DNA of 63,828 nucleotides, counting the filler, from Atractiella rhizophila (lineage: Eukaryota): the NCBI GenBank assembly GCA_021432655.1. It is 12 parts of 8 records of this genome, joined end to end, with 100 filler letters (N's around TTAATTAATTAA, not from the genome) between each part and the next. Parts side by side here need not be neighbours in the genome. Positions count along the whole stretch, not along the records: positions 1 to 1,488 come from MU272066.1; positions 1,589 to 4,976 come from MU272066.1; positions 5,077 to 15,687 come from MU272067.1; positions 15,788 to 18,227 come from MU272068.1; positions 18,328 to 24,224 come from MU272068.1; positions 24,325 to 31,668 come from MU272069.1; positions 31,769 to 33,855 come from MU272069.1; 5 more parts are not named here. One strand, written 5' to 3'. The translations under genes were made by a program, and so were the position numbers. This document shows, piece by piece, positions 1-32,008 of this stretch. A model generated the notes under the pieces. That model worked only from the letters and a program-made list of their open reading frames with translations. It had not been told where the DNA came from and ran no database searches. Position 1 is the first letter of the stretch. The number at the start of each line of letters is the position of its first letter.

Positions 1-3000
1 GCGAAAGCTAATTGTTTTGGGCACAGAATTACGCGCTTCCACTGCGGACTTTTGCAAAGGACAAAAACTCGTTAATCATACCCCCTTTCGAGGCGAGGGT
101 CTTGTTTGGGAACGTGGAGGCGTTGTTGGGTCTCAATGAGCAGTTCCTCGGTGTTTTAGAGGGGATGAGGATCGGAGAGGAAGTGGAACGGGGAGCGGGA
201 GTGGAATGGGCCGGGATAATTAAGGATTGGGTAAGCTTCTCTTCCACCCTTGAAGAGAGTCAGGATCTAACACAAAATGTAAATGATGACAGATGTCGAG
301 GTTCTCAGTCCCCTACACGTCTTATCTCTCCTCCTATCCACAAGCGAAAGGCATAGAGAACTCCCTCATGGCAACGACGTCCCAGTGGAGGAGCGGATTC
401 AGTAGGTTTTGTGAGAAGACGAAGATGCAGACTTCCGGCAATGGAGCGGGAGGTATTGGGAATGTCGGATTGCGAGAACTGTTGATGGAGCCCATTCAGA
501 GGATTCCCAGATATAGATTGTTGATGGACGGTATGTCTCTTTCCATGTGATGCCGCTGAAGTAAGTGCCGATGTGCCTTTCGGTTGGGTGATTAGAGATG
601 CTTAAACACCTCGATCCGCATGATTCTAGAAGGAGAGAGCTGGAGGACGCGATTGAGATCGCTACCAAGATTGCGAACTGTGATTTGGACGAGGAAACTT
701 TCAGAGCGAATTGTATGACCATGTTACAAAGGAATATCGAGGATTGTCCGGTACGTCTTCCTCCTATCCCCTGTTGACCATTGAATGGTTCGAAGCGATT
801 CCTGACAATTGATGTCAATACAGGCGGACCTCATCTCAAATTCGCGCTCATTCATCGACTGCATAGACCTAGCCGACCTCCCATTGCCTTCCTCTTCAGT
901 CCCCTTCCCCTCGCCCTCCCTCTCTTCCACCATCGGCTCCTCATCCTCACACTCTCACTCACACGGTTCCTCCCTCTCTGCCTCTCACTCCGGAGGGAAC
1001 GTGGTGAACAACGTGTTGCATTGCACCCTCTTCCTCTTCACCGATAAACTTCTTATCGTTAAACGGAACACGACTTCGAATCTTACCGGTCGCGCTTTGG
1101 CCGGATTGGAGGATTTCAATTCTTCAGGTGGAGCGCCAGAGAGCCCGAGGAAGAGGGAAGGTGGAGGAAAGAAGAGCGCGGCGCTCAAGTTGAAGGGAGT
1201 GTTAGAGTTGACGGATGTGACAGCAGTAGATAAGGATGGGGATGGTGCGTTTCCCTCTATCATTCCTTCCGCTGCCATGGATGTGCTGATATGACATTGG
1301 GAGGATAGAGCTGGCTTTCTATTTCTCCCCTCCTCCGTACGACTCATCTGAGAGGTGGAACGGCCGTCCGCATCGTCAGTACGCCGTCATACCCACAACC
1401 AACCTCCTCTCTGCTACGACGAATACCCCAGAGACCTTAGCGTACGAGAAGCGTCGATTCCTGCACAACCTTTGGCGTGCACAAGCTCNNNNNNNNNNNN
1501 NNNNNNNNNNNNNNNNNNNNNNNNNNNNNNNNTTAATTAATTAANNNNNNNNNNNNNNNNNNNNNNNNNNNNNNNNNNNNNNNNNNNNCGCGGTTTCCAA
1601 CACGTCCTTAGCTGCGAAGAGCATGCGATTCCAAAGACCCCATAACCAGCATCGTCTCTCCTCCAACCAACACCCATACTGCCGCATGACTGCTACGCCT
1701 GCCGGCAAGGTGGAGAGCCTACTCAGCATTCCTCCTCCCCTCTTTATCTTTCGGTCGAGATAGGAGGGTTACAGTATAGTCGTGTAGGTACCGTCGCCTT
1801 CCTTACTATCTCCCTTTGCGTGGTAGGGGTAGGAATAGATGACGCCAGTGTAGGCAGTTGAGGTTGTGAGGGAAGTTGAACTCGCGGCGCGAGAAGAAAG
1901 GAGGTGGAAGGGAGAAGGAGCCCGAGAGGCCGCGAGGTGGACTTCTTAACTTTAGGAGGTTAGGTCGGTTTCGCGCTGGCCATTCTAAGCTTCAGCACAA
2001 GGCAAATTGCTACTCTTCAAATAGCCACTTCTCCTTCTCCCACGTTACTTCGTGCAACAAGTGGTGCAAGGGAGGCCTCACTCTCCGCCTCTCCCTCCTT
2101 GGCACACTCACTCTCACACTCCTACTCCTCGGCTACCACCTTCTCTCCCTCCCGCTCCCCTTCCCCTGACTTCTCCTTCCATTACCCTCCAGCCGATCCA
2201 GATACGTCAGCTACTTACTCGCGCTTAAACTCTACTCCAGGCGGACATAACTGTAGTTAACAGTCCTTAGCGAAGCTTGGTAAGTTACCAGTTGTCCCCT
2301 ATCCTCCTTCTGCATGGCCTGTTAGGAGCTATAAGGAAACATTGTACCAGTATGTTAAGCGAGACTTTCAAAGGAGCAGGTTTAGTGTCAAGCGTTAGAA
2401 CCATCGCTAGAGTTAGCGCAGGAGGTCGAGAGAGGAAGATCTTAGTACGCCTAGCTCCACAAATTCGTAGAGATTAGTGGGTTGGTTTCCCGTGTAGCCG
2501 TGAATGAAGTCGCCGTACTCTTCCTTTCTCTGTATGGCAGGTAGTTGTTAGATATAGATCCTTAGGAGACTTACCCGAGGTAGTTGTCAAGAGCGTTAGG
2601 GTGTAAGGGTTATGGAGGGCGAGGTAAGGGGCTTCAGACGTAGAAGCAGAAGAGTGTTTTGGATGACTTAGGCGAGGAGGTGACCCTGCAGCAACGGTAC
2701 TCCCTCAAGAGATACGGAAAGCGAACACCTATCCTCCTGTTCTATTCTGCACATCCCCTGACTCTTGGAGCTGTAGGCACAAGCTCTCCTTAAAACGAAA
2801 GACGCTCGTTCCGCCGGTCTCATGCTTGAAGTCGAAGATCGCTCTCACGGGCATGGAAAGTCGAGTGGGAGAGACAACGGGAAGGAAGGCAGCAGTTTAA
2901 GCTCTGAGCGGGTCACGACCGCTTTCTGGAACGTTTATGAGAAGAAACAATACTTGGGAGAGGCGAAGAAGGGGAAGATGGTCCTTCAAATCGATCCGAG

Positions 3001-4976
3001 GAACGAGGCGGATGAGATTGGTTTCGGCATGGAGGGTGGGATGGGACCGTTCGCGGTTGCGAGAGCGCACAGTGAGAGAAATGGAAAGTGGATGTACGTT
3101 CTCTGTCAACAAGATCATTTCAGTGCTGTCGTTAATGGGCGTTCGGCAGGCTCTCGATTAGATTAAGGGGGATGCAAGGACCTCCTGGCGAGGATCAGCT
3201 GGTGACTTCTGGTATCATCCCCATGATGATTCAAACTTGTGGGTTCTTCTGCCACATTTGTCTGCAATCCTGTTGAATTAGGTATCTGTAGTGCAACAAC
3301 TTGGCCTCCACGATGTCCCTCCACGCTTTCCAGCTCTACCGACCCATCCCCCGCCTGAGCAACCCATCACTCCCACCGTCCGCACCCGTTCCAACACCTT
3401 TGGTCTCGACAGCATTTCGCGCAACCTCCTCTCACGCGACGTGTTTGGAAGCATCACTAGCAGTCACAAACGAACGCAGTCTACGATTACAAAGACATCC
3501 GGCGTTGAGAGTCGGTCTATCTTATCGAATAGTGTTAGTGGTTCTACGACAGCCACGTCCCTGATGGAAGACGGATCGATGTTACGCCGCCATTTGCCAC
3601 CGACCAAAAGCCAGCTATCGCAGGTCTGGAGCAACCATATTGCCTCGAAGTCTACGCCTCAACTTGAGGGCTCCATCAACGAGGATCCCGACAAAACGAT
3701 TTCTGCTGCTGATTCTGATGAGGACACGATGATGGAGCTCGTAACTGAGCCTTCTAAGGGCAAGCGGCGTCGACCATCAAGCGTACCTCCACCGTGCACG
3801 GATCGTCGTCCCATGTCTCCAACCGACGAACTCGTGCCTCCCACATCCATCTATCTCTCGCGACCCGAGAGAAGGGGGCCCATTGGCCCTCGAGAGCCGT
3901 CTCCGTCACCTGTACCTCCTCCAGGGTCCGATGAAGAAGATGAGGGAGAGGATACCACTCCTGACGGTCAAGAGTCCACTTCATTCACTTCCGAGCCTGA
4001 CGAAATAACCGTCGAGGAACAACCTCTGCGTCCTTCCACTCCTCCCCCCTCCACTTCTCCACCGCGGATAGCGAAACGTCCACTTCCCGACCCAACTTCC
4101 CCTCGCTCTCTTCCACCCGCTGCTAAACGACCTGCATTAGACGATTTAGGAGCTGGTAATACAGAACCTAGCGCGCCGCAGAGGAAGGTGTCGCCTCTGA
4201 GACGATCCACCTTTCGGAAAGAGAGGACTGTGCCTTTATTGGAAGCGGAAGGGGAAAGGAGGAGCAGTGCTGATGAGCGCATGGATGTTGATCGTGCCGG
4301 TGCTCTGCAACGATCGAGAAGTCCTCCAGTATGTACCTCTTTATGACTAACCACGCACGATGCAGAGCAATGTCACAGGCCCTCCTTCCCTCCGCGATGC
4401 ATGTCGACTCTCAACCCGTAGATCGACTGCTCATTTCTCGCAGTCCGGTATGTCCAAATGTCGTCCAATTTTCTAGCTAACATGAGTGTAGCCTCCGATA
4501 CCCACTGGAAAAGGAAGGGTGGATGCCCTTCGTTCGAGTCTGATGAGGAAGATTGCAGAAGAACAAACATCTCCAAGGACAGCCAGTACAGGCTTGACAC
4601 GGTCACCATCAACGCTTAACATGATTGTAGGCATTTTGACTACGTTGCTGGTACATATCTGATGTTGCATTCAGAACAAATTCGAGCCCATTGAGCGAAT
4701 ACGAAGTCCGCCAGTCCTGTCGCGATTGCGGGAGGAGGATGGAGGCGAATGGCAGAGGCGGTATGAAAAAGCAGAAGAGAGGTGCTTGGAGCTTCAAAGG
4801 ACTGTAGAGTCCCTTCGTGCAGAGAAGGATGAGGTTTATATCTCCCATGTCCGCTGCTGAAGGAGTTGGGCTGACCATTTGGCTTCATTGCAGTATGCGA
4901 GGGAAGTTGAACGAGTGACAGAGCATTCGAAGCAGCTTACAGGGCAATTGGGAACGCTCAGCGGCATGTATCGACA
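1..4976 (+). CDS. RhoGEF (Dbl-homology) protein, Bud3/Gef2-like; multi-exon, partial, split over two contigs
   Basis: DH-domain motifs LFGNVEALLGLNEQFL and GLRELLMEPIQRIPRYRLL, PH-like LFLFTDKLLIVKR, long S/P-rich exon 3291-4330. Normal-orientation sequence resumes at 2777 with gcacaagctc, the same 10-mer that ends the first contig (1479-1488). Confidence 0.8.
1489..1588. other. Artificial contig linker (N-run, TTAATTAATTAA, N-run); also at 4977-5076, 15688-15787, 18228-18327, 24225-24324, 31669-31768, 33856-33955, 44486-44585, 55104-55203, 61075-61174, 62681-62780
   Basis: Same 100-nt spacer eleven times; the palindromic 12-mer puts stops in all six frames. Confidence 0.99.
1589..2776. repeat. 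Mirror (reversed, uncomplemented) copy of 292-1478
   Basis: Read backwards without complementing it matches 292-1478 with scattered substitutions, e.g. 2776 leftward gatgtcgaggttctcagtcccctacacg equals 292 rightward. Confidence 0.97.
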
Positions 4977-6845
4977 NNNNNNNNNNNNNNNNNNNNNNNN
5001 NNNNNNNNNNNNNNNNNNNNTTAATTAATTAANNNNNNNNNNNNNNNNNNNNNNNNNNNNNNNNNNNNNNNNNNNNGAGGAGGAGGCGAGCGAACTGGGG
5101 GCAGCTGAGTCCATGGTTGTAAATTTTTGGACTACTCCAGGGGCTTAACATCGATTCACGCCCCTTAGGCCCCCAACGCTGCCAGTGAGAGTGAGAGGAA
5201 CTTCAAGCTTGTCCTGCTGGTATATCCCATCCATATCCCATGAAAGGGGCTTCAAGGATGGTTGACAAAGGTTGTCCTAAGATATTTTGGGAAGACATGC
5301 CGCCCCAACCGTAACGGTGATACCTGTTGTCACTTTAATGTTACATCGCGTTCTCTTTTCGTCAGCAGGCGTATGTTTTATGTTTCTCCAATCATGAGTA
5401 GTTCCTTTTCAAATGTGAATCCAAAAATTGTCAAGGACGAGAATCTGTGCAGCTCTCTCAAACTCCGCGTTCATCCCCCTGTCTGAATGCCCGAATAATG
5501 ATAACGTTTCCTTGCCCCTGTTGCGGTCCCCTGAGGACCACGGGATGGAAGGTTGGTTATTTGCGTCAATCCCCACTGACTACTTAGAAGTGAAAATTTG
5601 AAATGAGCAGAAGATGCCTGGGCAATTATGGAGGCGAGAGGCCGACCTGAATTGATAATGTTCTAATTTTGATCATCATGCGCCGTTAGATCCTTTCACC
5701 GCGACCAGATTTCTGTCAACAGGGTCTCGGTTTAAACGCTGACATTTCTTACTGTCGACGAGAGACACCATGTTTCGCATCCTTCTGCACGGCATTTTAT
5801 CTGGTGTTTCACAGGTCGTAGAACCCCAGGGCTATACGGGAGATTCACATTGAAAAAAAGGGAACAAGTGACTGACGCCAGCACATTTTCTGTTCAGCAA
5901 GAAGATAACATTGAAGAGGAACCGCGAACTACTCTTGTGTTCGTTAAAGGAGAACCGGCCTTAACTTTAAGCTCAGCTCATACGCTTTGTAGACGGAAGG
6001 CAGCCGAGCTTAATAATCGACTTCCTTCCGTCCGTTTCGCCATTTTTCCATTAGCACAGGTGGCCCGCATGCCCTTGGAGTGAAGATGATTCNNNNNNNN
6101 NNNNNNNNNNNNNNNNNNNNNNNNNNNNNNNNNNNNNNNNNNNNNNNNNNNNNNNNNNNNNNNNNNNNNNNNNNNNNNNNNNNNNNNNNNNNNNNNNNNN
6201 NNNNNNNNNNNNNNNNNNNNNNNNNNNNNNNNNNNNNNNNNNNNNNNNNNNNNNNNNNNNNNNNNNNNNNNNNNNNNNNNNNNNNNNNNNNNNNNNNNNN
6301 NNNNNNNNNNNNNNNNNNNNNNNNNNNNNNNNNNNNNNNNNNNNNNNNNNNNNNNNNNNNNNNNNNNNNNNNNNNNNNNNNNNNNNNNNNNNNNNNNNNN
6401 NNNNNNNNNNNNNNNNNNNNNNNNNNNNNNNNNNNNNNNNNNNNNNNNNNNNNNNNNNNNNNNNNNNNNNNNNNNNNNNNNNNNNNNNNNNNNNNNNNNN
6501 NNNNNNNNNNNNNNNNNNNNNNNNNNNNNNNNNNNNNNNNNNNNNNNNNNNNNNNNNNNNNNNNNNNNNNNNNNNNNNNNNNNNNNNNNNNNNNNNNNNN
6601 NNNNNNNNNNNNNNNNNNNNNNNNNNNNNNNNNNNNNNNNNNNNNNNNNNNNNNNNNNNNNNNNNNNNNNNNNNNNNNNNNNNNNNNNNNNNNNNNNNNN
6701 NNNNNNNNNNNNNNNNNNNNNNNNNNNNNNNNNNNNNNNNNNNNNNNNNNNNNNNNNNNNNNNNNNNNNNNNNNNNNNNNNNNNNNNNNNNNNNNNNNNN
6801 NNNNNNNNNNNNNNNNNNNNNNNNNNNNNNNNNNNNNNNNNNNNN

Positions 6846-7872
6846 TTGCGTGTCCACTAACGCACTACTCGCTCCTTTCCGTTCCATCAGTTTCGCCACC
6901 AAAAAGGACTGGCGGTACAACGGGTGGGACAAGGCTACTAGGTAGTCAACGTCAAAGGCTCTCTGGTGTCCCTTGGATGTCATCTTCTTTTCTAGGGTCG
7001 GGTAAACGGATGCTCCCGTGGCCTGTAGGTTTCGTACGGGCACCTTAGTTTCTTCGACGAGGTAACTCGTCCTCGTGCAGGTATTGCTCGACCGCTGTGC
7101 TCTGTTACTCGACAAATTTAGAACAGCATCTCTCAAGTTTGCATGATCCCTACGGTTTTTCTTTAGGTAGCATTAGGAACTCTTGTGAACCTAGCCACTC
7201 CTGTCCCATTAGGCTGAAGCCTCCTCGCACGTAGTAGAGTTCCTGTAAAACCCCCTCCCCGATTGTTTCGTCACATTTATCCAAAGTCAGTTCCCGAGTT
7301 ACTCACCTTTCGGGTGAAAGTCCCTCGACTATCTATAGGTGTCACGGTGGTCGTCGAAAATGAGGAAACCGATGTGAAAGGCTTTCACAGAACTATACGG
7401 GTATATCTCTCATTTTTTGCTACCGCTAAAACCCACGCCGGTAAAGATATTTAGACATCAGCTCTACACTCCAATCCAACCGTCCTAGCTCAAGCAGCCA
7501 AAAACTGACTCCCCACCAACAGTGAGTTCAGAGAAAAATATACAAAATCGGGTAAAATGCTTCTTTCCTTTCCATTTATCCTCAAACCGAAATCTTGCTA
7601 CAGACATCCCCATCGGCTTTGCTGACCCCGAGAAATCACTCCTGGATGGGTCAGAAATCATAGGTGGGAGTGCATAGTGAGTTTCCGTTTCTTTAACATT
7701 CGGTCCTTCTTTTGCTGAAGTGGGACGCAATAGTGGTGCTGCAACCATCGCTGGCGGCGATGGATCACGGCAGCCAACCAAGAAGGAACTCGGGATTGCT
7801 GAGTATCAGGGCAAGTACTTCACGACCCAACTAGGATACTATGTCGCTGGAAAGGCTGCTGCTTCCAAATGA
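6846..7872 (+). CDS. NAD(P)H:quinone oxidoreductase, WrbA/PST2 flavodoxin-like; promoter and 5' exons lie in a mirrored block (6846-~7560), 3' exons (7604-7872) are normal
   Basis: Backward read from 7443 gives [42 protein letters not shown]...YDGFLFGIP.RYGRAPAQW...GGQHGGQE with GT-AG introns. Forward exons give IPIGF...[37 protein letters not shown]...stop at 7870-7872. Confidence 0.92.
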
Positions 7873-9104
7873 AGCTAGAATATTAGAGTTCTGAGAGTGT
7901 GTGTAGTCTGCAAAAAATGTCAGTGATTCAGTTAAGACAGTTCCATGGCAATCTTTAAGTTGAATTCAAGTTGTGTGAACTGTTTGCAAATCGTGCAAAG
8001 GTGAACTGAACCAAAGAAGTAACGTGGAAACGTCTGATTTAGATTGGGTTTACTGCGGCCACCGTACATTCGTCCTGAACGAATTTAACGAATCGACCAC
8101 TTCTACGATGGCAATACATATAGGTTGATTGGAGTGGGGTCTGTCATGCGCGTAAGATTCTAGACAATTCTGAATTCATTTTATCAAACAAGTCTCTTGT
8201 CCACGTCAAATGTGGATGTTTTTTGTCGAAAGTAGCCAAACCCAATTTTCCTTTTTTTTATGGGGGATGGCAACTAATTTGAAACCTTCTCAAATTTGCA
8301 TGCGTACAAAATTTTCTTTCATAAATTTATAAAACATCAAGAGACACCCGTTAGGGTCTGAACAGGAAGCTCAAATATGGAGGGCCGTGGTGAATGGTTT
8401 CTGTTCGACATGTTGTTGAGGATCCTTTACACAAAGTCTTGAACTTGAGTTTCTCTTATATTTGATTGGTTCAGGTCGATTTTTCTAACACGGAAGGTCC
8501 TTTCCATCGTTGTGCTATCGCAGTCTTCATTTTACTTGAATAGCTCCTTTGCGGTGAAGTGTTTGAGATAGCCCAACATCCTTGTGGGATTTCTGTGCCG
8601 TTTGGAGCCTGATCGTGAGACCGTGAAGAATAACAGATAGTCGAAGTGGGAAATACAAGGTTGGATTCCATCCTGTCATTGACTTCTTCTCCCATTCGGC
8701 CTTCGCGCGGAAGAGAAGAAAGGATTTGCGAAAACTCAAAGAGTGGAGCCCATTCCTGGCTCCGCGATTGTATGGCTGTACCCTGCACATTGTAGATTTA
8801 ATTGAGCAGAGGAGAAAGGCAGAGTTGTATTTGTACGCTTTTAGCCTTTTTTGGCTGACACGGCCATTATTGTGGCCTTCCATGGAGTTCCACTCTCCTT
8901 TTAAGTGGGAGGAAGATGCTACGCATCGCGCGAGGATTACATATCTTACATCTTGACGGTCTTTCCGTCTTCCAGCCGTTTCTGAGCAATGCTTTTTAAA
9001 ATGTACCTAATGTATAAAGTAGGCTTGAATCGCTCCCTCTCAGAGAAAACCAACAAGCTCAAAATGAGATGTTGTTTGACAAGATTGAGAATTGATACCT
9101 AAGA

Positions 9105-9950
9105 ATGCCTGCTCCCAAAATCGCCATCGTCTTTTATTCGTTATACGGACACGTTAAAACCTTGTGGGAGAGTGTAGCTAAGGGAGTGACACGGTGGATA
9201 TCTATCAGCTTCCTGAAAGTGCGACAGCTCCCATTTTGCTTTCTCTCATCGTCAGCAACTCATTTATCTCCATTGTGCAGCGCTCCCTCAAAATGTTCTA
9301 GAGATGATGCACACTCCTCCAAAGTCGGATTATCCTGTCCTCACCAACCCGAGTGTTCTCAAAGATTACGATGGATTTCTTTTTGGCATCCCTAGTACGT
9401 TCGAACTCTCCACAACAATATCATGAAAGCTCATTGTCTCGCTTCGCCAGCTCGTTATGGACGCTCTTGCTCAATGGAGCAGCTTCTTCGATTCCACGGG
9501 CATGCTTTGTATGTCCGGTGCACTTGTAGGCAAGTGGGCAGGCATATTTTCTTCTACCGTGAGTTTCCTGTGTGTAGTCTTTCTGAACCTGCAAACTGAT
9601 TGACCCCTGCGATAGGGTGGACAACATGGCGGTCAGGAAACCACGGCTTTACCACATTGCCTTTCCTCGCCCATCATAAGATGAGGTTCTCGTTCGTCCT
9701 TCCACTTATAATTAAATGGTCCTGTAGATATCCCTATTGGATTTGCGGACCCACAGAAATCACTCTTGGATGGCTCAGAAATCATTGGAGGCAGTGCATA
9801 GTGAGCTTTTCATTTCTTTTACCACTCGGCCTTTTTTGCTGAAGCGTGACGCTACAATGGAGCGGCAACCATCGCTGGCGGCGATGGATCGAGACAGGCA
9901 AGCAAAAGAGAACTCGGAGTTGCTGGATATCAAGGTAAGTATTTCGCGAC
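9105..9950 (+). pseudogene. Second WrbA/PST2-like copy, frameshifted
   Basis: [20 protein letters not shown], same exon layout as the upstream paralog. A 13-nt deletion near 9189 and a 2-nt deletion near 9463 relative to that paralog give an early stop in exon 2. Confidence 0.8.
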
Positions 9951-11514: not shown

Positions 11515-11694
11515 AGGTTTCACGTCCAAACCAAAATCAACGTGTTGTATGTAAAGAAATAGGATCACATTTTCAATGGCAATTTATAGTACTCATAAAT
11601 CAAACCACCAGTCAAAAGAATACAAGATGAGTGAATAGTCGAGAGAATCAGAGGGAAATCAAGAGGTTACCAATCTGTCCTTAGCAAGGAAGCA

Positions 11695-15787: not shown

Positions 15788-18227
15788 TGAGCGTGCCTGT
15801 GCCCAGCTTTGTGACCTTCTTATCAAACCAAGCCGCGCTCGTGCACATTCCAAAAGCTACAATCTCAACGTTCCATCCCTTCTTGAGTGCCGCGCGTATG
15901 GGTGTCATGAATCCCTCGTCGCTGAAGTCGGATGCTGCACCATCGCCCGAGACGAGAACGATGGTCACTTTAGCGTTTGGAGAACGTTCAACGGCTAAAG
16001 ATTCCAGTAACTTCATTCGCAGGATTTCGTCAACACCCTAGGATCCCACCCTGGTTAACGAAGGAAAAGAAAGAGGAGGGCAGAAGAGCACCTGTTCAGT
16101 ATAACGGACTCCACCTGAAGTTTGGCGAGTTCGAAGACGCTTCACTCCACGACGTCGGCGGCTTGGATCGAGAATATCGTCATCCGGAAGGTTCACCGCC
16201 TGTCGCACGCGCTGTAAAAGAGAAACTTCGTAACCCTAAACGACGTTGAGTTCAAGACTGTAAGTCACTGTAGGACTGACCCATTCGACCGCAACCTCGA
16301 GGGATTGTGGGAGCGGAGAACTGCCAACAATACACTTTGCCCTTGCTTTGCGTCCTCTTTCGAGGATGCTAAACAACATGGCGTAATCCAGCTTCGGCCG
16401 CCGTCCCATGAACTCCCCCTGTGCCCTGGCCTGATCCGAGAATACTGACCTTCCGGCTGCACGCTCTGCAAACTTGATATACTTTAGGAAGGAGAGGTAG
16501 ATGTTAGAGTTGTCGATGAAGATTTCGATATGATCTTGTTCTTCCATCGTTGATACCTCCCGCACTTCATCGCTGTCCAACTTATGCCCTGCCCTCAACA
16601 ACTCCCTAACCTTCTTCTCCTGCTCTATGTTCAAAAACCCCTTCGTTCGACTCGTCCACAATCCCTTTACAGCGTGTTCGTTTGGCGGCCCCGTTGGCAT
16701 TTCTTTCGGTCCAGTGAGACGAATCAAGCCTTGATGAAACTGCTTAGACCGCTCTCTTTCCTTCCTCGCAACATGTTTCGGAACGTCGAACATCACCATG
16801 TAATTCTTCATCCTTCTAAAGTCTTGCGGGAACTGTTGCTTCACTCGCTGAAGGATGAATTTGATCTTCTCAGAAGGAGGGAGAGGAAACTTGTCCCGAA
16901 GCTCGTCCGCGTCGTCGTTTCTTCGAACTGTTATCACAGTCTCTTTCGCCTTCTCCTTCTCCTTACTCGGTTCGCTCTCGAGTCACCCTCGCCCTTCGCT
17001 GTTCTTCTCAGGACCACCCTGCTAACCCCCTCTCTCACGCTCATCAAGCAGCTCCTTCAGTTGAAGCTGATGATGCTGCTCCGTGTTCTTCTTCTTAGCC
17101 TCCTCATCTTCGGTCCTACTGATACAGCCACGCTCGTGTCTGTGACTAAAAGAAGGTGGCTGTGCTTGGTAAGAGTTCTCGGTTAGTGCGGGCAGCGAAG
17201 CAGCTGTTCAAGAGTCGTGAGGACCTGTTGGATAGGCCCCCTCGCCTTGCGGTCTGTCAGGCAAGCTAGAGCAGTGAGGGGGAGGCTTCCGTGCCTCCGC
17301 TAGCTCTAACTCGTTCCTCGACCCGTCACACGTCCTCTTTGCCCACCTAACCGAGTCACCTCTGAAAAGCTACCGACTTCCTCTCCTACTTGTAGCAAGC
17401 TCGGACCTTTCCTCAACCCGAGGAGAGGGAGGAAGGAACGGGTTCTGCAGCGGTCGCTTTGGAGGTCGCGGAAGCGGAAACTCTCCAGGGAATTAGCTGA
17501 ACTGCCCTCTGAGGCTACGCCTGCAGAGGTACCTTCGGCTACTAAGAAAGAGATCCTCCTTCCTTGGTCTCTTCCCTTGTCTCCTACTATTACGCCTCGT
17601 TCTGTACCTGTAAAGCGAACTACTAGCTCGTCGCTACCTGCGGAGGTGGAGTAAGCTGCTTGCATCTGGAAAGAGAAGTTGGTGGAAAAGGAGGCTAGGT
17701 TGGGTGAGGGCGGGTAAAAGGTGTTGTTGGCAAGGCTGGGGGAAAGAGGAGAGTGTTGAAGTCATAGTCGAAGGTCTGAGGTGAGTGTTGCGGTCTACAA
17801 AGACCTGCGCTTGGGTAGTGCTGGCGCCTAAGTATACGGCGAAAAGGACGAGGTCAGTTCGTAGGACCTTAACATGCTTTCTTCCTTGGCCTCTTCTACA
17901 GTCTTCATCTTCGGGTACGCTACATGAATGAGCTGTACCCTTACCTTCAGAACTTGCATCGCTTCCTTAACTACTTCGAACCTTAGTTCCTGAACTTATC
18001 CCGACCGCAGCTGAATCGCCGAAACCTACTTTTCCATGCCCTCTCATTCTCCGTTTTCAGAGACCACCTACACTTAAGATCGCTCTTCTCATGCTCGTTC
18101 TTTCCTCCCGCACGACGACTATGGTAACAGTAAGGGCTAAGGGGTGGACGGCTTGTCCGGTCGAACTTCTAAGTTGCCTAACCTATGGTCCTTTGACGCA
18201 ATCCTTAGTGGCGTGTCGGAGTCGGAC
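15788..18227 (-). CDS. NYN/PIN (LabA/DUF88-like) domain protein, partial; N-terminal region lies in mirrored block 16943-18227
   Basis: IFIDNSNI, VGSSPL, EQ|GVDEIL, VLVSGDG, GWNVEIVAF acidic PIN motifs. The complement-only read of 16943-18227 joins in frame as ...AQPQP-E-TVITVRR. Confidence 0.85.
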
Positions 18228-18327: not shown

Positions 18328-18898
18328 CCGTCTACACAAGCGCGACATCATCATCGATACTCCCGGTGGGAACCCCTCCGCTTGCTGGTCAGGATACGCT
18401 TGTGAGCCGTACTACGACGGTGGGTGTTACATCCTACTCCTTGTTGTGGGACCGATTGAGCTGAGCTGAATATGGCACAAAGCGGGAATCTTCCCCGGTC
18501 ACTACGCTAGCTGTTTGCCAGCGACAACAGAAACTACTTCAACCTCTACAAGTCCAGATGGGTCCACCGTTTACGTTGTCATTTCACAAAGCCAAGATGT
18601 TTGCGGCCAATGCGTGTGTCACTACGGTTCGTCTCTCCTCATCTCAAGCTTGTTTTCCCTCCATGTCTGACCTGACTGATGTTTTTACGTCGCTTCAGAG
18701 GGAGAAGCACACTCTGGCAGCGCCGCTGTGACCGTCATCCCTCTCGTAACAGTAACAGTGACGGATTGGTCAAGTTTCACAGGTGGGAATGGAGGAAGTG
18801 GCAGCGCGGCCTGGAAGCGAACAATCGGTGGAACGGCCGCAAAACTCTTTTGGCTGGGATGGGCTCTCGCGATTGGAACGGTTGGGGCTGCTCTGTAG
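18328..18898 (+). CDS. Cys-containing secreted, probably GPI-anchored protein, 5' partial
   Basis: HKR|DIII Kex2-like site, several Cys, T/S-rich linker, GGNGGSGSAA followed by hydrophobic tail LFWLGWALAIGTVGAAL-stop. Confidence 0.65.
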
Positions 18899-19836
18899 AG
18901 GGATTTGAATCGTTCTTGTATACCATGTTTATTGATTTTTTCCTTCATCTTCAAGTTGGTGGTGATGGACGCGATCGGTTTCACTTCATTTTTGCATGAT
19001 TTTCTTGATCAAGACGCATGAATTTGTACCATCAACATACCTATGCATTGGTTATGAAGCTAAATTGAACACAATGCCTGACACGATCCAGTTCAGAGGA
19101 AAAATAGTTAACAGAATGCTCATCCAAGGAAGAACGCAGCAATTTTAGGAGATATCATTGTCGTTGAATTAAGGAGAGAGACTGAGCAGCCGACCTTAGA
19201 ATATGCCGTTTTAACTTTAATGATTGCACGAATAGTTCATGACCAATAACCCATATAACACGGCTAGCAACGCTCAAACGTTTTGTACAACGACTCCAAA
19301 CTCGTGAGCTCAACAAGGAGATCAAGCTCGCGTAATGTTTTTGGAGCCACAAAGTACAAAAAAACGATCGGAACGGTTGGGGCTGCTCTGTAGAGGGATT
19401 TGAGTCGTTCTTGTATACAATGTTTATTAATTTTCTTCATCTTCAAGTTGGTGGTGATGGACGCGGTTCGGTTTCACTTCATTTTTGCATGATTTTCTTG
19501 ATCAAGACGCATGAATTTGTACCATCAACATACCTATGCATTGGTTATGAAGCTAACACAATGCCTGACACGATACAGCTGGGAGGAAATAATTAACAAA
19601 CCCTCACCCAAGGTTGAACGCCGCAATCTTAGGAGATATCATTGTAGTGGAACTAGGGAGAAGGACAGAGCGATCGACTTTAGAATAAGCCATTTTTAAA
19701 ATTGCACAAATAGTTCATGACGAATAATCCACATAGCACGGCTAGCAACGCTCAAATGTTTTGTACAACGACTCCAAACTCGTGAGCTCAACAAGGAGAT
19801 CAAGCTCGCGCAAGGTTTTTGGAGCCACAAAGTACA
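18871..19836. repeat. Diverged ~0.48 kb tandem duplication (~18871-19357 and ~19366-19836)
   Basis: Both units run from gga acggttggggctgctctgtagagggatttga to tttttggagccacaaagtaca, with many substitutions and small indels. Confidence 0.93.
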
Positions 19837-22569: not shown

Positions 22570-22677
22570 TTTGTTCGACAACTTCAAACGGTAACGCGTC
22601 GAGGAACGGTTGGTTGTATTTGGCACTCGACGAGCTCTTCTCGCCACACTGTTTTGTTTCGGGTCCGGGATAACGAA

Positions 22678-24224: not shown

Positions 24225-24324
24225 NNNNNNNNNNNNNNNNNNNNNNNNNNNNNNNNNNNNNNNNNNNNTTAATTAATTAANNNNNNNNNNNNNNNNNNNN
24301 NNNNNNNNNNNNNNNNNNNNNNNN

Positions 24325-25343
24325 GGTGGCAGAACCAATATTGGTCTTGGAGAAACGTCGTCGTTGTCTCCAGTAAATGGAACGTCTTTCTCTTCGACTA
24401 AAAACGGAGTTCCAGGTGTGCTGTCTCTGTCAATCACGATATAAGTTTCTCCATCCTCGTCGACCCGCACAATTCCGGAGTGTTGGAGATGTGTAAAATG
24501 TTAGTAATACTTTGTTCATGAACATTCTGGAACTTTCTATTTGCCACAAGCTCTCATGTATATAAACACCTGTTCTTGTGTTTCTGCTGCTCATGCATTT
24601 GCAAGAGCTCAGCCAAACGTAATACATTTGTTTGAGGTTAACAAAGCAGCAGAGAAAAACAACACGGAGACAGGGGGATAAAGCTCAAGTGCTTCTGCTA
24701 GCAACCTTTTCGAATCGAGGACGACTTCGTCAAAGCTGACGTTGCTTGGAAGAGGGGCAAAGAAACGATGTAAACTGATGTGCACGGGTACACTGATCAA
24801 GTCGAGCGCGTGGAGTCTGATCTTGGAGGGGGCGAGAGGTAGATTGAACTTCGATGTTGGGAACACATTAAACTGTTGAATTTGAGCAATTCCCTGTCGC
24901 GGCATGATCTTCCAGTTGCAGTTACCTATCACACCATGAATTTGATCAACATTTCAAAGCGTCAAAATACAGTCATCGCACCTGCTTCAATTGTTGGTGT
25001 AAGGCGCTCTCGAGATCTAGGATGCACACTTGGCGGAATTCCACAGCTGTCACTTTTACACAAGTCAACGCTTTCAAGTTATCGAAGTCTCGAGTCACTC
25101 CACCGAGCTCATTATGTCGTGGATCCTATGCTCCTCTGGAAGCTTATGACTCGGAGCTCAGGGTCCCAACAGGTCTGCATTTTGTATGAGCAGTGTGCTC
25201 AAAGATACCAGAAATGGCGTAGGTCAAGTGGTCTGTTTGCATTATTGAACTCCTCTGTCATTCTCAGGCTTTTCCGGGATTTGCTGCTGTAATGACTCGG
25301 ATCAGGGACATCGCATTCAAATTGTGGACTCCAAGCGGCACGG
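24325..25343 (-). CDS. Internal fragment of an unidentified multi-exon gene
   Basis: Protein-like minus-strand ORF segments (24325-24470, 24670-24900, 25200-25343). Confidence 0.4.
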
Positions 25344-25368
25344 NNNNNNNNNNNNNNNNNNNNNNNNN

Positions 25369-26159
25369 CACCTCGAACTTCAGAAGACCCTTGATCTTCC
25401 CTCTTCGATGTTGTAGATGATAGAATCGTTGACCTTGATAGCAGGATCAGGGTACCTGATCGTGCGTCCATCGTGCGTGACGATGAAAGGAACCCCACGA
25501 GAGCCGAGTTGCACTTTTCGGACCTTAAGAAGCTTGTAGGTGGCTTCTTCTGCTGAGATGCGGTGGAGGGTGAAGCGACCCTTGGTGTCGTAGAGAATGC
25601 GGAAGTGTTCAGAGGACTTGGGGAGAGAGACAACGTCTGAAACACATTGTGTCGGTTTTAGCACAGCGGCTGTCAATAGCATGGAAGGCCTGACGCACCC
25701 ATGAATCCGAGAGGATAGGTGTTGTCAGTCCTGACCTTTCCGTCGACTTGTACGAGCCTCTGAGCAACGATCAGAGTAACCTCTCTTCCGGTTAGGGCAT
25801 ATTTAAGCCTGTTCTTCAACATGACCTGTAGCATTGACGGGTGCGAAATCAATCCACTGATTTGCCTCCACACCACATCAAAACATGAGAAAAGAGACTT
25901 ACGGAGAGAGGCAGTGACTCCCTAAGCTTGTGGGGACCTGGTGAGGGCCTTAACGGGAAAGGGTTTAGTTTCTCAGCCATCCATTATCGAAAGAATCCCG
26001 AACCTGCTCGCGTAGACGGCTCCTCCTACACCTCCGCCCAGCTTTGAGAGCATCCATGACGAAGGTGCTGCTAATCTTTTGAGGTGCTTCTTTGGTCCTC
26101 GTCCCTAGAACTCCACATCAGAACAGTTCCAGCAAAGGGATAGCTGGAAAGCGTACCAT
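25369..26159 (-). CDS. RPS4: 40S ribosomal protein eS4, 3' partial
   Basis: ATG|intron|[14 protein letters not shown]...[11 protein letters not shown]...NRLKYAL...VDGKVRTD...[12 protein letters not shown]. Confidence 0.97.
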
Positions 26160-26309
26160 TTTTCAAAGATCGTGAAAGAGAAACTTTTGCACTTGTCCAA
26201 ACCAGGCGAGCAAAAATCAAAAGCCACAACCCTAGAACCCTAAAAGAGCTCCGGTCGGAGTGACAACCACACTTTTGACTGAGTCACTAAGTTACAACAC
26301 AACACAACG

Positions 26310-26548
26310 ATGACCTCAAAGGACGACTCCATCAGCTTCCCAGAGGCGAAGCCCTATCACAAGTCAAGTGAAGGCCCAGATCCATTCGCGGATACTGAGG
26401 CGTCGGGGTCGACTTCGAGAGCTCTTGATGAGCCACCTCCAGCTTACGGGAAACTAGACGAAGAGCTGCCTCCAGGGTGGAAGAAGGAATATAGTGCTGA
26501 GCATGGCAGGGCCTACTATGTCGATACACTTGCGGACCCCCCTAGATG
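26310..26548 (+). CDS. WW-domain/PY-motif protein, first exon; remainder not found
   Basis: EPPPAY then LPPGWKKEYSAEHGRAYYVDT, followed by a gtgagt donor. Confidence 0.7.
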
Positions 26549-27057
26549 TGAGTGGTAATCTGAAGGAGAACGGCATTGATCTGAATGCGATCCTGTTCTG
26601 ATTTCTGATGCTCGGTGAGTTTCCCTTTGTTGCCAGGCTGTGACGGGACTCTTGCTTTGCCATCGCCCAACATAATGGTGTGACACTTTTAAAATAGGCA
26701 CATATGATATTGTAAAACAGATCTTGGTTTGCTTTGTGGCGTTAGTTTCTTCCGATGTTGGCATGATGTCATCATTCGAATTGAGACCTGGCATGCAAGA
26801 TTGTCTCTGCATTTATGCAGCTTGGGATTGCTTTGGAGCCTACGCCCGTTAGCATATCCTACGGATTTATTTCGCAGTTCCCCAAGTTTAGTGGTGTAGG
26901 TACTAGAACTAGTAGACCAGTTGCAGTCATCAGAATCGGACAAGCAAACGCTTGAACCCTTCAGTCAACACAAGTCAGAAACACAAGGATGACGAACTAC
27001 CCAAAACTTCTTCACACTGCCGCCTGACTTTGACAGCATCTTAGGCTTCTACTGACA

Positions 27058-28266
27058 ATGGCTACTTCGATGCGGTCTTTCCCTAACGAAATATTTCAGC
27101 ACATCTTCGACACCTTCAAGCAACGGTGCTTGCAACAGATCGGACCTGACGGAGGCGTCTTTTTCCCAGCCAGTTTGACCGTCTTGACCTGCAGCCTTGT
27201 CTGCCGAGACTTTCTGCACTTTTCGAGAACAGTATACTTTGAGCGCGACATCTTCTTCGAGCAGTTTAACGCGGAGGATGAACAATCTCTGATAAAGTTG
27301 AAAATTTTGCTTAAATCGCCTTACCAGACTTTACACCCATATCTCAAGCAAGTCCTTCTCATGGATTTTGCACTGACCAGGATTCCTGGTGGTGATTACG
27401 ACATTTTTGCTCTCACGAACGAAGTCAACATCACGAAACTAACGTTGAAGAACATATCCGCAAATTTTGATCAGACTCTGATACAAGGGTTCGGAAAGCT
27501 CACTTTCTTTAAAACCGAACAGATGCAGTGGTTGTTTGATGATCTCGCCGATTTTGCAGCACATCATCCAGGTATCGAAAAGCTCCACATAAAAGACTGC
27601 GATTTTTATCGACCGCGCGAAGGCACAGTCGAGGAAAAAATATCCATAAACACCCGTCGATTCTCAAGCGAGCTCCGGTACCTATTTTTTGGTGGGACAT
27701 CTGCAGATATTGTTCTGAATGGATTGCTTCCGCTTTGCAAGCTTGCAAAGCTGACGCACGTCAAGCTTTGGGACCCTTTTAGGCGGCCACACCACCACGA
27801 ACGAAATATCAAGGCACTACAGACTTTTTTCGAAAGACAAGGCGACGTCATATCGACCATCGAAGCTCGAAATTCATATACGCCTGTTGACATTCAAGCT
27901 GCAGCATGGACGTCAATCCTCCATTCTTATCTGCCCAGAACATCAGCCCAAGAAGTCACTTTCGAGTTTGACCACAGGACTGATCCTTTGTTCTGGGGCG
28001 AGGCCATCAGCAGTTGGGAAATGCACAACCTCGAACACCTCAGACTGGAGTGTCACAGGTGGGGAACCAGGTTATTTCAGGCCTTGAGGAAGAATCTCAC
28101 TAAGAAGAGGTTCCCTATGTTGCGATTGATAATCTTGAAGGAGAATGCACGGCCAGGGTGGAGAACGGAGACTGAGATGGCGAGGGATATGTTGAAGCGT
28201 CACTTTGAGGGATTAGGCATACGACTTGCTCTTGTAACCTATTGGCTAGATGGGAAACTCTATTGA
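27058..28266 (+). CDS. F-box-like protein with LRR-like body, intronless
   Basis: 402-aa ORF; FPNEIFQHIF...LTCSLVCRDF F-box pattern; LxxLxL repeats. Confidence 0.75.
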   Translation: MATSMRSFPNEIFQHIFDTFKQRCLQQIGPDGGVFFPASLTVLTCSLVCRDFLHFSRTVYFERDIFFEQFNAEDEQSLIKLKILLKSPYQTLHPYLKQVLLMDFALTRIPGGDYDIFALTNEVNITKLTLKNISANFDQTLIQGFGKLTFFKTEQMQWLFDDLADFAAHHPGIEKLHIKDCDFYRPREGTVEEKISINTRRFSSELRYLFFGGTSADIVLNGLLPLCKLAKLTHVKLWDPFRRPHHHERNIKALQTFFERQGDVISTIEARNSYTPVDIQAAAWTSILHSYLPRTSAQEVTFEFDHRTDPLFWGEAISSWEMHNLEHLRLECHRWGTRLFQALRKNLTKKRFPMLRLIILKENARPGWRTETEMARDMLKRHFEGLGIRLALVTYWLDGKLY

Positions 28267-29611
28267 GCCAACTTTGTTGGCATGGATATCGATACTCGAA
28301 ATTGTAATATATGTCGGATTGGACCCAGCGACCTCTGTACACCACTGAATGAGGAACAAATTGCATCGATATTCACCAACTGAATCCCTTTTGAAGCTGT
28401 TCTTACAAATAAAGATAGGTATCTATCGGCCCAAGGGTATCAACTGCCTTCACCGCACACGATGTGAGGTGATGTGAGGTAGTACGATCAATCTCCTATC
28501 AATCATCGTCTGTCACGACTTCCGCATACGCTGGAGGCCTTGCCCCAGCAGCGTTGATTTCGCCTGCACAAATAAGGCAAATGTCAATTTTTTGGTGGGA
28601 CATCTGCAGATATTGTTCTGAATGGATTGCTTCCGCTTTGCAAGCTTGCAAAGCTGACGCACGTCAAGCTTTGGGACCCTTTTAGGCGGCCACACCACCA
28701 CGAACGAAATATCAAGGCACTACAGACTTTTTTCGAAAGACAAGGCGACGTCATATCGACCATCGAAGCTCGAAATTCATATACGCCTGTTGACATTCAA
28801 GCTGCAGCATGGACGTCAATCCTCCATTCTTATCTGCCCAGAACATCAGCCCAAGAAGTCACTTTCGAGTTTGACCACAGGACTGATCCTTTGTTCTGGG
28901 GCGAGGCCATCAGCAGTTGGGAAATGCACAACCTCGAACACCTCAGACTGGAGTGTCACAGGTGGGGAACCAGGTTATTTCAGGCCTTGAGGAAGAATCT
29001 CACTAAGAAGAGGTTCCCTATGTTGCGATTGATAATCTTGAAGGAGAATGCACGGCCAGGGTGGAGAACGGAGACTGAGATGGCGAGGGATATGTTGAAG
29101 CGTCACTTTGAGGGATTAGGCATACGACTTGCTCTTGTAACCTATTGGCTAGATGGGAAACTCTATTGAGCCAACTTTGTTGGCATGGATATCGATACAC
29201 TGATGCTTTTGTGTTGCTACTCTAAATTGTAATTGTCGGATTGGACCCTGTACGATGGGAAACTCTATTGAGCTGACTTTTTGGCATGGATATCGATACA
29301 CTGATGCTTTTGTGTTGCTACTCGAATTGTAATATATGTCGGATGGGACCCAGCGACCTTTGTACACCACTGAATGAGGAACAAATTGCATCGATATTCA
29401 CCAACTGAATCCCTTTTGAAGCTGTTCTTACAAATAAAGATAGGTATCTATCGGCCCAAGGGTATCAACTGCCTTCACCGCACAAGATGTGAGGTGATGT
29501 GAGGTGGTACAATCAATCTCCAATCAATCATCATCTGTCACGACTTCCGCATACGCTGGAGGCCTTGCCCCAGCAGCGTTGATTTCGCCTGCACAAACCA
29601 GGCAAATGTCA
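27684..29611. repeat. Tandem duplication (27684-28586 and 28587-29611); second unit holds a 5'-truncated F-box copy and an internal ~100-nt duplication
   Basis: Both units start attttttggtgggacatctgcag and end gcaaatgtca; the ORF track shows identical C-terminal 180 aa. Confidence 0.97.
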
Positions 29612-32008
29612 GCTGGACGCTCAACGCTCAAGAGAGACAAGATCAGTAGAGTGTACGAACCTGAAACGAGCCTGGCGAACTGTAATGAGTGGTTCAAGGC
29701 TCGTTCAGCGGACCTCAAGTCCACAGGGGCTGTTGGGGTTGTCGGTGATTGAGGAATTGTATGGGCAAAGGCCGAGCCAGAATGTTGAGGACGCTCAAGG
29801 TCTGACAGCTCGTGATGGTGAAAGCCATGGTCGACGAGAATGGGCTGAACAGCTCCGCATTGATGGGACGCTTGGAGGTCTATTGTCCCGTCTGCGAAAT
29901 AAGTCGGCAAGTGATTCTGTGAACATCGACACTATAAAAAAAAAAACAAAAAAAACAAAACGGTGGCAAGAACCGGAAAGGAGGAACCAACCGAGAGGAT
30001 ATGTAGTGGAGACTCGATAATAACATCCCAAAGCTTTCTCTGTCCTTTCGAATCAAGATGATCATCATCTCCACGTTCAACTCGAATAACAATTCTTAAA
30101 AGATGCGAGATCGCCAATAGAGCCTTCTCATGCACCAAGGAGAAGTGAAGGTTGGACTGGCAATCCGGAAGCTGGAGTTCTCCTTCAAGGATCCAAGGTC
30201 CCAAAGGATCCGCCAACGAGGGGACCTGGGTCTCATCGCCCTCTCCAGCGACGAACAATTTCTTCAACGGGCTCGTCTCGAACGCATCTTCTTCATCGCT
30301 CGTGATCGGCAGAATCGCCGTCCGCTGCTCCCCAGGGATCTCAGCTTTGAGAAGTTGGAAGCGCTTCGGTCCTTCGTGCCTGCTGATCTTTTTTGAATGC
30401 GCAAAATAGTCCACCTTCTCTTCCAAGACGACCAAAATTCGATACACCTTCACTTTGGCGAGTGGGTCGAGGCGGATCGAGACCGGGATCTTCGAACCGA
30501 CGCAGAAGGACTAAGCACGGCTGTTGAGAAGAATTGTTGGAGAGTGACAGTGAACGACTTACCTTTCCTGACAATGCAACCATATATCGCATCTGCGTCT
30601 CCCAAAACCTCTCAATAACAATGCTCTCCACAGCTTCCGTGCTTTCATCAGAAGGGCACGACACGAGATGAACCTCCATTTCGCTCTGGAGGTTCGGAGT
30701 CAAGACTCCAGCGCGCTGGACGTATGCTTTCAATCGATAGACGACTGCTCCGAAGTTACAATGCAGCGTTGGCGGCAACGACGACGAGACGGGGATTTGG
30801 ACTGGATAGGTATACGTCCCGGGACGGAACTCTGTCCAAGCGTTCTCATCTTCTTTCTCTTCCTCCTCTTCTCTTCCCTCATGTCCCGCTTTTCGACCAT
30901 CTCCCATCCCTGAACCTGTTGACGGTTCCTTGCTGAGTAATGCCTCCTTGATCGCTCTCAACGTCTTCGTCCTTCCCCTCGAAGACTGGTCATTCTTCCC
31001 CGTCAGGCTAGTCGTCGTATCCCTACTTTCGCGTTCCGGACTACTCGGTCTCCTCCCACCGCTTCCGCCTTCCAACATGCTCTTCAACTTCTCTTTATCG
31101 TTCCCAAAGATCTTGCTCAAACTAAACCTACTCTTCTTCTTCCCCCCACCACTCGCTTTCTCCTCACTAAACCTCACCGTCGCCCCATTCCCACTCTCGC
31201 TAGGTCTCCTTCCCGACCCCGCAAACGAGAGCGAAGTGCCGGTGGTGGTGGAAGTGGCGGATTGGAACAAGTGTCCGTTTCCGATCGATCGTCCGCGTTC
31301 GCGCTCGAATCGCGCGTCTTCCCTTTCTTCTCCCGCTCGACCTAGTTAGGAAAGCAGAGAAGAGGGAGGTGTGGCGTCCTTCGCTGTCAGCTTCCTCAAG
31401 CCTGCGTGCATATGGCCCCATGTAACTTCGCAGCTGGAGTCTAAGTGGGCGGAGGGAGAAGGGAGGTGACAGTGCTTTGCGCTGGAGGAGGAGCTGGCCG
31501 TGAGGCGGCGGTAGCAGGTCCAACCGCTACTGTTTACCCTTGCCTCCTGTAGCACCCTCGCTGTAAAGCGTCTCGTCACCCAGGCCTTCGTGCTAAAGCT
31601 GATGGGCTCTTCTGAGCCCGTCTACCTGCCTGTAGTCAGCGAGGACACGGACCTAGGTGGCAGAGAGGNNNNNNNNNNNNNNNNNNNNNNNNNNNNNNNN
31701 NNNNNNNNNNNNTTAATTAATTAANNNNNNNNNNNNNNNNNNNNNNNNNNNNNNNNNNNNNNNNNNNNGAGGCGTCGCGCATTCTGCCTGTTCCGTCGAT
31801 AGTTCTGCCGATCGGAGCGGAGGAAGACGACGGGTTCAGTGAGGCGGAGCGAGAGCGTCGTCGGCGGCATGTGCGCGCGTGCTGGTGCTGTCGAGTAGGT
31901 AGTTGCAGGAGAAGAAGCTGAGGAAGCTGGTGAAACTGGGGAAGCTGGAGAAGAGATGAGGTCGTCGTTTTGTTGCGGCCGAAAGACCGTGAGGCGCGTG
32001 GGTGTCAT
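29524..32008 (-). CDS. Alpha-arrestin (ART/Aly-like ubiquitin-ligase adaptor), split by a linker; 31341-31668 mirrored
   Basis: LSLRLTEPVVFL N-terminus, WTEFRPGTYTYP, LPPTL, YRLKA, ISHLLRIVIRVERGD, C-terminal PPAY. Confidence 0.9.

Follow-up and report, generated by a model that had tools for sequence, protein, structure and literature searches.

The window analysed here, a 63,828-nt stretch of DNA from Atractiella rhizophila, comprises 14 fungal contigs with synthetic N44-TTAATTAATTAA-N44 linkers in between. It carries a RhoGEF/PH-like region, a benzoquinone reductase (flavodoxin-like) gene and its paralogue, the gene of a 485-amino-acid protein (P0001) and an arrestin-like gene. At four contig ends we identified a block written in reverse order without complementation, at 1589-2776, 6846 to about 7563, 16970-18227 and 31310-31668 (mirrored blocks 1 to 4). 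Together the blocks amount to 3.5 kb of unreadable sequence out of 62 kb. The linkers adjoin blocks 1, 3 and 4, and a 753-N scaffold gap adjoins block 2. The features are as follows.

289..1488, plus strand: counterpart of block 1 in normal orientation; it forms the 3' end of contig 1, the neighbouring contig, and stops 10 nt beyond the junction point
1489..1588, no strand: synthetic N44-TTAATTAATTAA-N44 contig linker, one of 11; non-biological sequence
1589..2776, no strand: mirrored block 1, 1188 nt, RhoGEF/PH-like exons; reverse-only copy of the true upstream sequence of 2777 (LLR -131)
2777..4976, plus strand: remainder of contig 2, correctly written; 2777-2786 equals 1479-1488 (LLR positive from 2701 on)
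6846..7563, no strand: mirrored block 2, about 718 nt; junction in an intron, at 7559-7570
7564..7869, plus strand: reductase, rest of the intron and C-terminal exons, correctly written; 90% identity to P0156 (benzoquinone reductase, partial)
9104..9950, plus strand: reductase paralogue in normal orientation, with which block 2 was compared as an internal reference; alignment of P0157 in two frames
15789..16969, minus strand: body of the P0001 gene (residues 112-471), correctly written; 100% identity over 94% of the query
16970..18227, no strand: mirrored block 3, 1258 nt (LLR -125); exact junction at 16969/16970
29932..31309, minus strand: body of the arrestin-like gene (Arrestin_N PF00339, Arrestin_C PF02752), correctly written; P0006, 96% identity; covered in all three public runs
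31310..31668, no strand: mirrored block 4, 359 nt, upstream part of the arrestin-like gene, placed by run contigs (LLR -24.8)

Block 1 has its normal counterpart within the window. When the reversed window was compared with the window by BLAST, reversed 2779..1590 matched 289..1477 with 97.9% identity over 1190 nt (E = 0), so that the span of 1589-2776 given in the first-pass annotation proved exact. The flipped block differs from 292-1488 by 24 substitutions and one indel, and the base at its tip also differs from contig 1. It runs seamlessly into 2777, and the first 10 letters from there on are identical to the last 10 of contig 1. The counterpart encodes a RhoGEF domain (PF00621) at 293-550 and has a weak match to PH_BUD3_C at 809-1294. 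Given these differences from contig 1, block 1 was built from separate read data and is not a copy of that contig. The reads may have come, for example, from the other haplotype; half-depth variant contigs in run X2 near block 4 fit a heterozygous genome. The share of words from 1589-4976 present in the public runs X1, X2 and X3 was 0.45, 0.45 and 0.38, respectively, which would fit the presence of only the un-mirrored 65% of that stretch; these values come from a word search only and are not counted as evidence.

Block 2 holds the start codon and N-terminal exons of the reductase gene, which read as a mirror from 7444 down to 6864. Reversed 7444..6864 matches the paralogue at 9104..9676 (78% over 592 nt). 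The rest of the paralogue (9726-9950) matches 7602-7826 as deposited, with 81% identity and colinear with the mirrored N-terminal match. All 12 quinone-reductase homologues fetched gained their N-terminal match (residues ~2-140) only after the flip, and residues from at least 140 onward match 7564..7869 as deposited, colinear after the flipped N-terminal part. The junction fits best at 7563, and the top 12 candidates all lie within 7559-7570, close to the end at about 7560 proposed previously.

For block 3, the evidence comes from a protein annotated in another assembly. P0001 requires this block in its normal form: 17897-18227, read as a mirror, encodes residues 1-111, and the remainder of the block is upstream sequence. 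By tblastn, residues 1-471 form a single HSP after the flip, as opposed to only residues 112-471 in the deposited sequence. Among 100 candidate junctions (16900-16999), the exact P0001 junction peptide was obtained at 16969 only. The block claimed at 16943-18227 is thus real, with a start that belongs 27 bases further on, at 16970.

The read check by public runs covered 29700-31668 only, that is, block 4. Contigs of X1, X2 and X3, from two samples, all end their match to the window at 31309 and continue past it for 553, 204 and 399 letters, respectively. The last 27 letters of the 30-letter consensus past 31309 stand reversed at 31640-31666, and this consensus has no forward or reverse-complement occurrence in the window. 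The first three true letters past 31309 correspond to two different letters at 31667-31668, so that the flipped block falls short of a perfect match at the tip. All three runs support the un-mirrored continuation and none covers the mirrored form, which bears out the reading of this junction in independent data. The block was correctly recognized at 31341-31668 in the first-pass annotation, with a start 31 bases off; the run contigs place it at 31310. Cover was zero in the five bins across 31350-31668, which is not evidence by itself, as the Logan contigs of the runs demonstrate presence and not absence; the argument rests on the loose ends. The arrestin-like gene has a 52-nt intron at 30511-30562, which is skipped at a joint of an X3 contig. 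A homologue search among representative proteins gave 258 matches; the near-identical one, P0006 (96%), is a gene model whose start lies downstream of block 4. A search of longer proteins gave distant matches only, from three proteins. A junction at 31339/31340 was also considered and was dropped because the run contigs place the junction at 31309, which voids a tblastn comparison with 153 proteins (four extensions at 31340, none at 31339).

The blocks can also be recognized without any reference. We scored the window in 300-nt windows by leave-one-out log-odds of 5-mer words versus their reversed words. The score was negative in all 29 windows inside the blocks (mean -30.6), as compared with 3.9% of the 557 windows outside them (mean +25.7, s.d. 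14.6). Over the last 200 nt it was negative at exactly four of the 28 contig ends, which are the four blocks. The ratio of GATC to CTAG also differs, being 260:105 outside the blocks as opposed to 6:12 within them (Fisher P = 0.0013). Low-scoring windows at 40301 (-22.5), 45401 and 45801 were considered as further blocks and rejected, as they are isolated and contig-internal, and the first lies beside a short tandem repeat.

Taken together, the claim of four gap-touching blocks that are reverse-only copies of real sequence holds in every case. Each adjoins a gap, the location expected of an artefact, and the backwards reading of each matches real sequence or protein. The proteins used in the mirror-reading tests had all been retrieved with the window sequence in its unaltered form. 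Independent data support the junctions of block 4 (all three runs, two samples) and block 3 (the protein from the other assembly). None of the 10 ORFs found in the blocks as deposited matches Pfam at E <= 0.01, in agreement with their description as nonsense in six frames. Chance ORFs of up to 210 amino acids do occur in them. All four blocks also lie, as stated earlier, at the gene-upstream end of their contig, and flipping them in place restores colinearity at 2777, with the reductase exons, at 16969/16970 and at 31309 (the first three letters excepted). We conclude that the blocks are almost certainly errors in the deposited sequence and not a property of the organism's DNA.

Several other origins were weighed. 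Reversal during post-assembly data handling, either in a script that merged or formatted the data for submission or in the preparation of the concatenated window, is improbable, even though some post-processing did occur, as the 11 synthetic linkers in the window show. Block 2 adjoins the 753-N scaffold gap and no linker, which indicates that the mirror error is older than the linker concatenation. Block 1, with its 24 substitutions and one indel, is no copy of contig 1, and its junction lies 10 nt from the end of that contig, as expected for a primary break that was extended later. An error in decoding colour space (SOLiD-type) data is very unlikely. In colour space, the reverse of a sequence has the same appearance as its reverse complement, and a single wrong colour leaves all bases downstream complemented; a reverse-only sequence is a complement-only sequence on the other strand, which is a typical colour-space failure. 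However, such an error complements in place and leaves neighbours adjacent, whereas here the order is flipped and an additional inversion would be needed; for none of the four blocks does an in-place complement without a flip rejoin the flank.

That the mirrored DNA is physically present, whether as a mirror repeat of kilobase size or through non-templated or parallel-strand synthesis, seems exceedingly improbable. Its sole support is that Logan contigs cannot prove the absence of a rare mirrored molecule. Against it, the normal form is found in the contigs of three runs, in a second, annotated assembly and in the neighbouring contig, and the blocks are confined to contig ends beside gaps. We know of no polymerase that makes mirror copies. 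The earlier judgement that a software bug reversing without complementing is far likelier than new biology is therefore supported by the neighbouring contig, the protein from another assembly, the 12 of 12 homologues and the contigs of three runs. Least probable of all are ordinary inversions, that is, reverse complements that were misassembled or represent real structural variants. A blastn search of the window against itself on both strands revealed no counterpart, forward or reverse-complemented, to block 1 or block 2, and in six-frame tblastn searches residues 1-111 of P0001 and the reductase N-terminus appeared only after the reverse-only flip. Inversion was thus rejected, as these searches of the deposited sequence, in six frames or on both strands, gave no match to real sequence for the reverse complement of a block.

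Entries in which a whole record is reversed or complemented occur in marker-gene databases. Such orientation errors in public records involve the same operation, reversal without complementing, and likewise leave no homology in six frames. The blocks differ in that each makes up just a portion of its contig, invariably the gap-side end, and is fused to correct sequence. The literature available to us in excerpt yielded no description of partial mirrored contig ends in genome assemblies and no report of problematic assemblies for this species. In formal terms, block 1 and 289-1477 are the two arms of a mirror repeat within a single strand of the concatenated sequence, as in natural mirror repeats (H-DNA or triplex). 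Natural mirror repeats are short polypurine-polypyrimidine tracts (PMC9171763), whereas the blocks consist of 359-1258 nt of complex coding sequence. Moreover, the two arms in the case of block 1 belong to separate contigs, and for blocks 3 and 4 the window contains no second arm. We rejected the H-DNA motif because the blocks are not short low-complexity tracts with adjacent arms. The overlap between flipped contig 2 and contig 1 (about 1.2 kb, about 2% divergence) resembles that of allelic ends, as in haplotig overlaps of heterozygous drafts. Ordinary haplotig overlaps consist of two readable copies, but here one copy is mirrored, which makes overlap-based merging of contigs 1 and 2 impossible.

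Having set these alternatives aside, we return to an error in the deposited sequence. In every affected contig, the sequence that belongs beside the core is written in reverse order without complementing, so that the base truly adjoining the core sits at the outer end of the contig. This could arise if a contig-extension or gap-closing step walked outward, kept the bases in the order in which they were found and attached the string unreversed. From this geometry alone, an outward extension stored in walking order is the most economical and the likeliest cause. If a contig was subsequently reverse-complemented during ordering or scaffolding, its block would move from the left end to the right. 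One observation counts against this scheme: all four blocks lie on the 5' side of the flanking gene, and a bug blind to strand would place all blocks on the same side (all 5' or all 3') by chance in one of eight cases. We consider it an even chance that the error is systematic, the pipeline having mirrored many contig ends throughout this assembly and possibly in other public assemblies made with it.

The mirrored blocks are not a real feature of this genome and imply nothing new biologically; the value of their recognition is practical, for the curation of the assembly and its annotation. The error renders the 5' exons and promoters of the flanking genes unreadable and leaves gene models truncated or lost. 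Three genes in the window are deprived of their first exons; the losses comprise residues 1-111 of P0001, about 140 of the approximately 210 residues of the benzoquinone reductase and the upstream part of the arrestin-like gene, and two contigs with a true 1.2-kb overlap could not be merged. Reversed k-mer asymmetry finds the blocks reference-free and could potentially be applied database-wide, and the repair is a flip in place. Should the rate of four in 28 contig ends apply assembly-wide, it would bias gene counts, N-terminal domains, promoter analyses and contiguity alike. If the error is systematic, hundreds of gene starts may be silently absent from annotations.

We confirmed that four contig ends in the window are written in reversed order without complementation, as the first-pass annotation had claimed, and corrected the boundaries of two of them (blocks 3 and 4). 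The window comprises 14 sequence pieces, most of them separated by 11 identical synthetic linkers (N44-TTAATTAATTAA-N44), and has two further gaps of 753 N (6093-6845) and 25 N (25344-25368). The sequence is eukaryotic, with genes split by introns, and the best protein matches (P0001, P0156 and P0157) carry the source name Atractiella rhizophila.

Mirrored blocks in the window and the comparison that identified each
1589-2776: block 1, mirrored; reversed window blasted against the window
6846-~7563: block 2, mirrored; mirror blast and tblastn of 12 homologues
16970-18227: block 3, mirrored; tblastn of P0001 and junction test
31310-31668: block 4, mirrored; Logan contigs of the public runs X1, X2 and X3

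The window, reversed without complementation and blasted against itself, gave two pairs of matches only, for blocks 1 and 2. In the first, 2779..1590 matches 289..1477 of contig 1 (positions 1-1488) at 97.9% over 1190 nt (E = 0). Flipped in place, block 1 ends at 1589 and is followed by 2777-2786, ten letters identical to 1479-1488, which follow the matching point on contig 1. Thus, contig 2 (1589-4976) has the structure reverse(U) + D, in which U is a segment overlapping the final 1.2 kb of contig 1. Between the two copies there are 24 substitutions, of which 13 are transitions, and a single-letter indel, indicating that block 1 was derived from a separate set of data, plausibly the other haplotype, rather than copied from contig 1. 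Contig 1 encodes a RhoGEF domain and also matches a BUD3-type PH domain weakly; these RhoGEF/PH exons have a second copy, concealed in the mirrored block. At 29908-30028, run X2 contains two alternative contigs that differ at several sites and have depths of 87.4 and 89.6, roughly half of 177 each, suggesting that the genome is heterozygous or dikaryotic. If so, the ~2% divergence of block 1 from contig 1 would be accounted for as well.

The second mirror match, 7444..6864 to 9104..9676 (78% over 592 nt, E = 8e-135), is accompanied by a match in normal orientation of 7602-7826 to 9726-9950 (81%); flipped block 2 and then its flank thus align colinearly with the paralogue at 9104-9950. Homologues were obtained using the unaltered C-terminal exon (7681-7869) as query; all 12 proteins retrieved are quinone reductases, of the flavodoxin-like type according to a Pfam run on the quinone reductase P0157. 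Against the contig as deposited, all 12 match in tblastn by their C-terminal part only (residues >= 140; 55-125 of P0156, a partial benzoquinone reductase). With block 2 flipped, the N-terminal part of every one also matches, in the correct order. The junction lies inside an intron and its position therefore cannot be fixed by protein comparison; alignment to the paralogue places it at 7563 (12 best candidates within 7559-7570), bearing out the end near 7560 proposed originally. The paralogue aligns with P0157 in two different frames and shows gaps of 13 nt and 2 nt relative to the mirrored copy; it is possibly a pseudogene or a low-quality stretch. By eye, two reductase stretches that are contiguous in P0156 fall in different frames at ~6880-6915 in the mirror reading of block 2. 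A homopolymer-length error would explain this change, which suggests that sequence quality is lower in the extended ends than in the contig cores.

On the minus strand, the flank of block 3 (16239-16940) shows 100% identity to P0001, an annotated hypothetical protein of 485 aa from another assembly, over 94% of the query. Residues 112-471 of P0001 are found by tblastn in the contig as deposited, and residues 1-471 in a single HSP once the block is flipped. By eye, 17897-18227 in mirror reading encodes residues 1-110 with two differences. Among the 100 junctions scanned (16900-16999), 16969 alone yields the exact 23-residue P0001 junction peptide, so that block 3 begins at 16970, 27 nt rightward of the 16943 first assigned; a flip at 16943 loses nine residues without shifting the frame. 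Read as a mirror, 16970-17997 also contains a Ser/Pro/Arg-rich open frame of 354 aa upstream of the P0001 start, which may be part of another hidden gene or a chance product of low-complexity sequence.

Block 4 is flanked by a minus-strand arrestin-like gene with Arrestin_N and Arrestin_C domains. Protein comparison gave no support for this block, as the near-identical gene model P0006 begins downstream of it. We compared 29700-31668 with contigs of X1, X2 and X3, which represent two samples (X1 and X2 share one). Positions 29700-31309 are covered in all three runs (25 of 30 bins), and the five bins of 31350-31668 as deposited are covered in none. In each run, one contig ends its match at 31309 and continues for 553, 204 or 399 letters, with the same 30-letter consensus in all three. 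This consensus does not occur in forward or reverse-complement form within the window; its last 27 letters stand reversed at 31640-31666. Thus, beyond 31309 the true sequence continues as the block read in mirror order, starting at the outer tip of the contig and running inward. Block 4 is mirrored as proposed, but starts at 31310 rather than 31341, 31 nt further left. The tip is not letter-perfect, with two different letters (31667-31668) in place of the first three true ones; strain difference or contig-end error could be the cause. The X3 contig skips exactly 52 letters, 30511-30562, the intron between the two arrestin ORFs, whose ends read CT..AC on the plus strand and GT..AG on the minus strand, which is the strand of the gene. 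X3 therefore resembles spliced RNA, and since its contig extends beyond 31309, transcription appears to include the un-mirrored upstream sequence.

Real DNA has strand symmetry, in that a word and its reverse complement occur at similar frequencies, but no mirror symmetry. Using 5-mer counts from both strands of the window, excluding the four blocks as first delimited, we scored 300-nt windows by the summed log ratio of word to reversed word, leaving out their own counts. Outside the blocks, 557 windows have a mean of +25.7 (sd 14.6, minimum -22.5) and 3.9% are negative; inside, all 29 are negative (mean -30.6). When 200 nt at either end of every piece were scored, 4 of 28 ends were negative (-13.4, -20.1, -16.4 and -20.2), precisely the four blocks, and the other 24 ranged from +0.1 to +34.8. 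The palindrome pairs suggested in the first-pass annotation invert likewise: GATC:CTAG goes from 260:105 outside the blocks to 6:12 inside them (Fisher p = 0.0013), and TCGA:AGCT from 342:291 to 13:25 (p = 0.019). None of the ten ORFs from the blocks as deposited has a Pfam match (E <= 0.01). Isolated negative scores in 40301-40600, which adjoins a short tandem repeat (40353-40496), and 45386-46185 (-22.5, -17.3 and -10.3) lie in contig interiors and were not counted as mirrored blocks.

The window also contains repeats in normal orientation: a dispersed pair on one contig (36093-37927 and 42579-44403, 79% over 1853 nt) and a tandem pair (18870-19358 and 19365-19836, 88% over 490 nt). In a tandem duplication at 27684-29611, 28587-29198 is 100% identical to 27684-28295 over 612 nt and 29254-29611 matches 28249-28586 at 90.5%; ORFs 27034-28266 (410 aa) and 28576-29169 (197 aa) share an identical C-terminus. 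The duplication may be genuine and recent, or it may be a further artefact of the assembly.

An ordinary inversion is excluded, as searching the deposited form on both strands and in all six frames yields no match in the blocks. A colour-space decoding error would complement bases in place and leave their order unflipped, whereas here the order is flipped. Natural mirror repeats (H-DNA motifs) are short purine/pyrimidine tracts, unlike these kilobase-scale stretches of coding sequence. We found no description of mirrored contig ends in the titles and abstracts searched. At the positions mirrored in the deposit, the normal form is carried by four independent kinds of reference, namely the neighbouring contig, the paralogue with 12 homologues, the annotated protein of another assembly and the contigs of three public runs, and the blocks sit only at contig ends adjoining gaps. 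The mirrored blocks are therefore almost certainly an error in the deposited sequence, in support of the software artefact originally favoured over biology.

In all blocks the order is flipped, no base is complemented and the core's true neighbour base stands at the far tip. An outward walk from the contig end would produce such an end if its bases were stored in the order walked and then joined on without reversal. This step was probably extension or gap-closing that preceded linker concatenation, since block 2 borders a scaffold gap and not a linker, contig 1 stops 10 nt beyond the block 1 junction, and block 1 was built from other data than contig 1. Left and right contig ends are affected twice each, which would fit if some contigs were reverse-complemented later. 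In all four cases the block is on the 5' side of its flanking gene, a uniform pattern that a strand-blind bug would give by chance 1 time in 8. The mirrored blocks are not a real feature of the genome and their biological interest is low; their practical value lies in the curation of this assembly, and possibly of others from the same pipeline.
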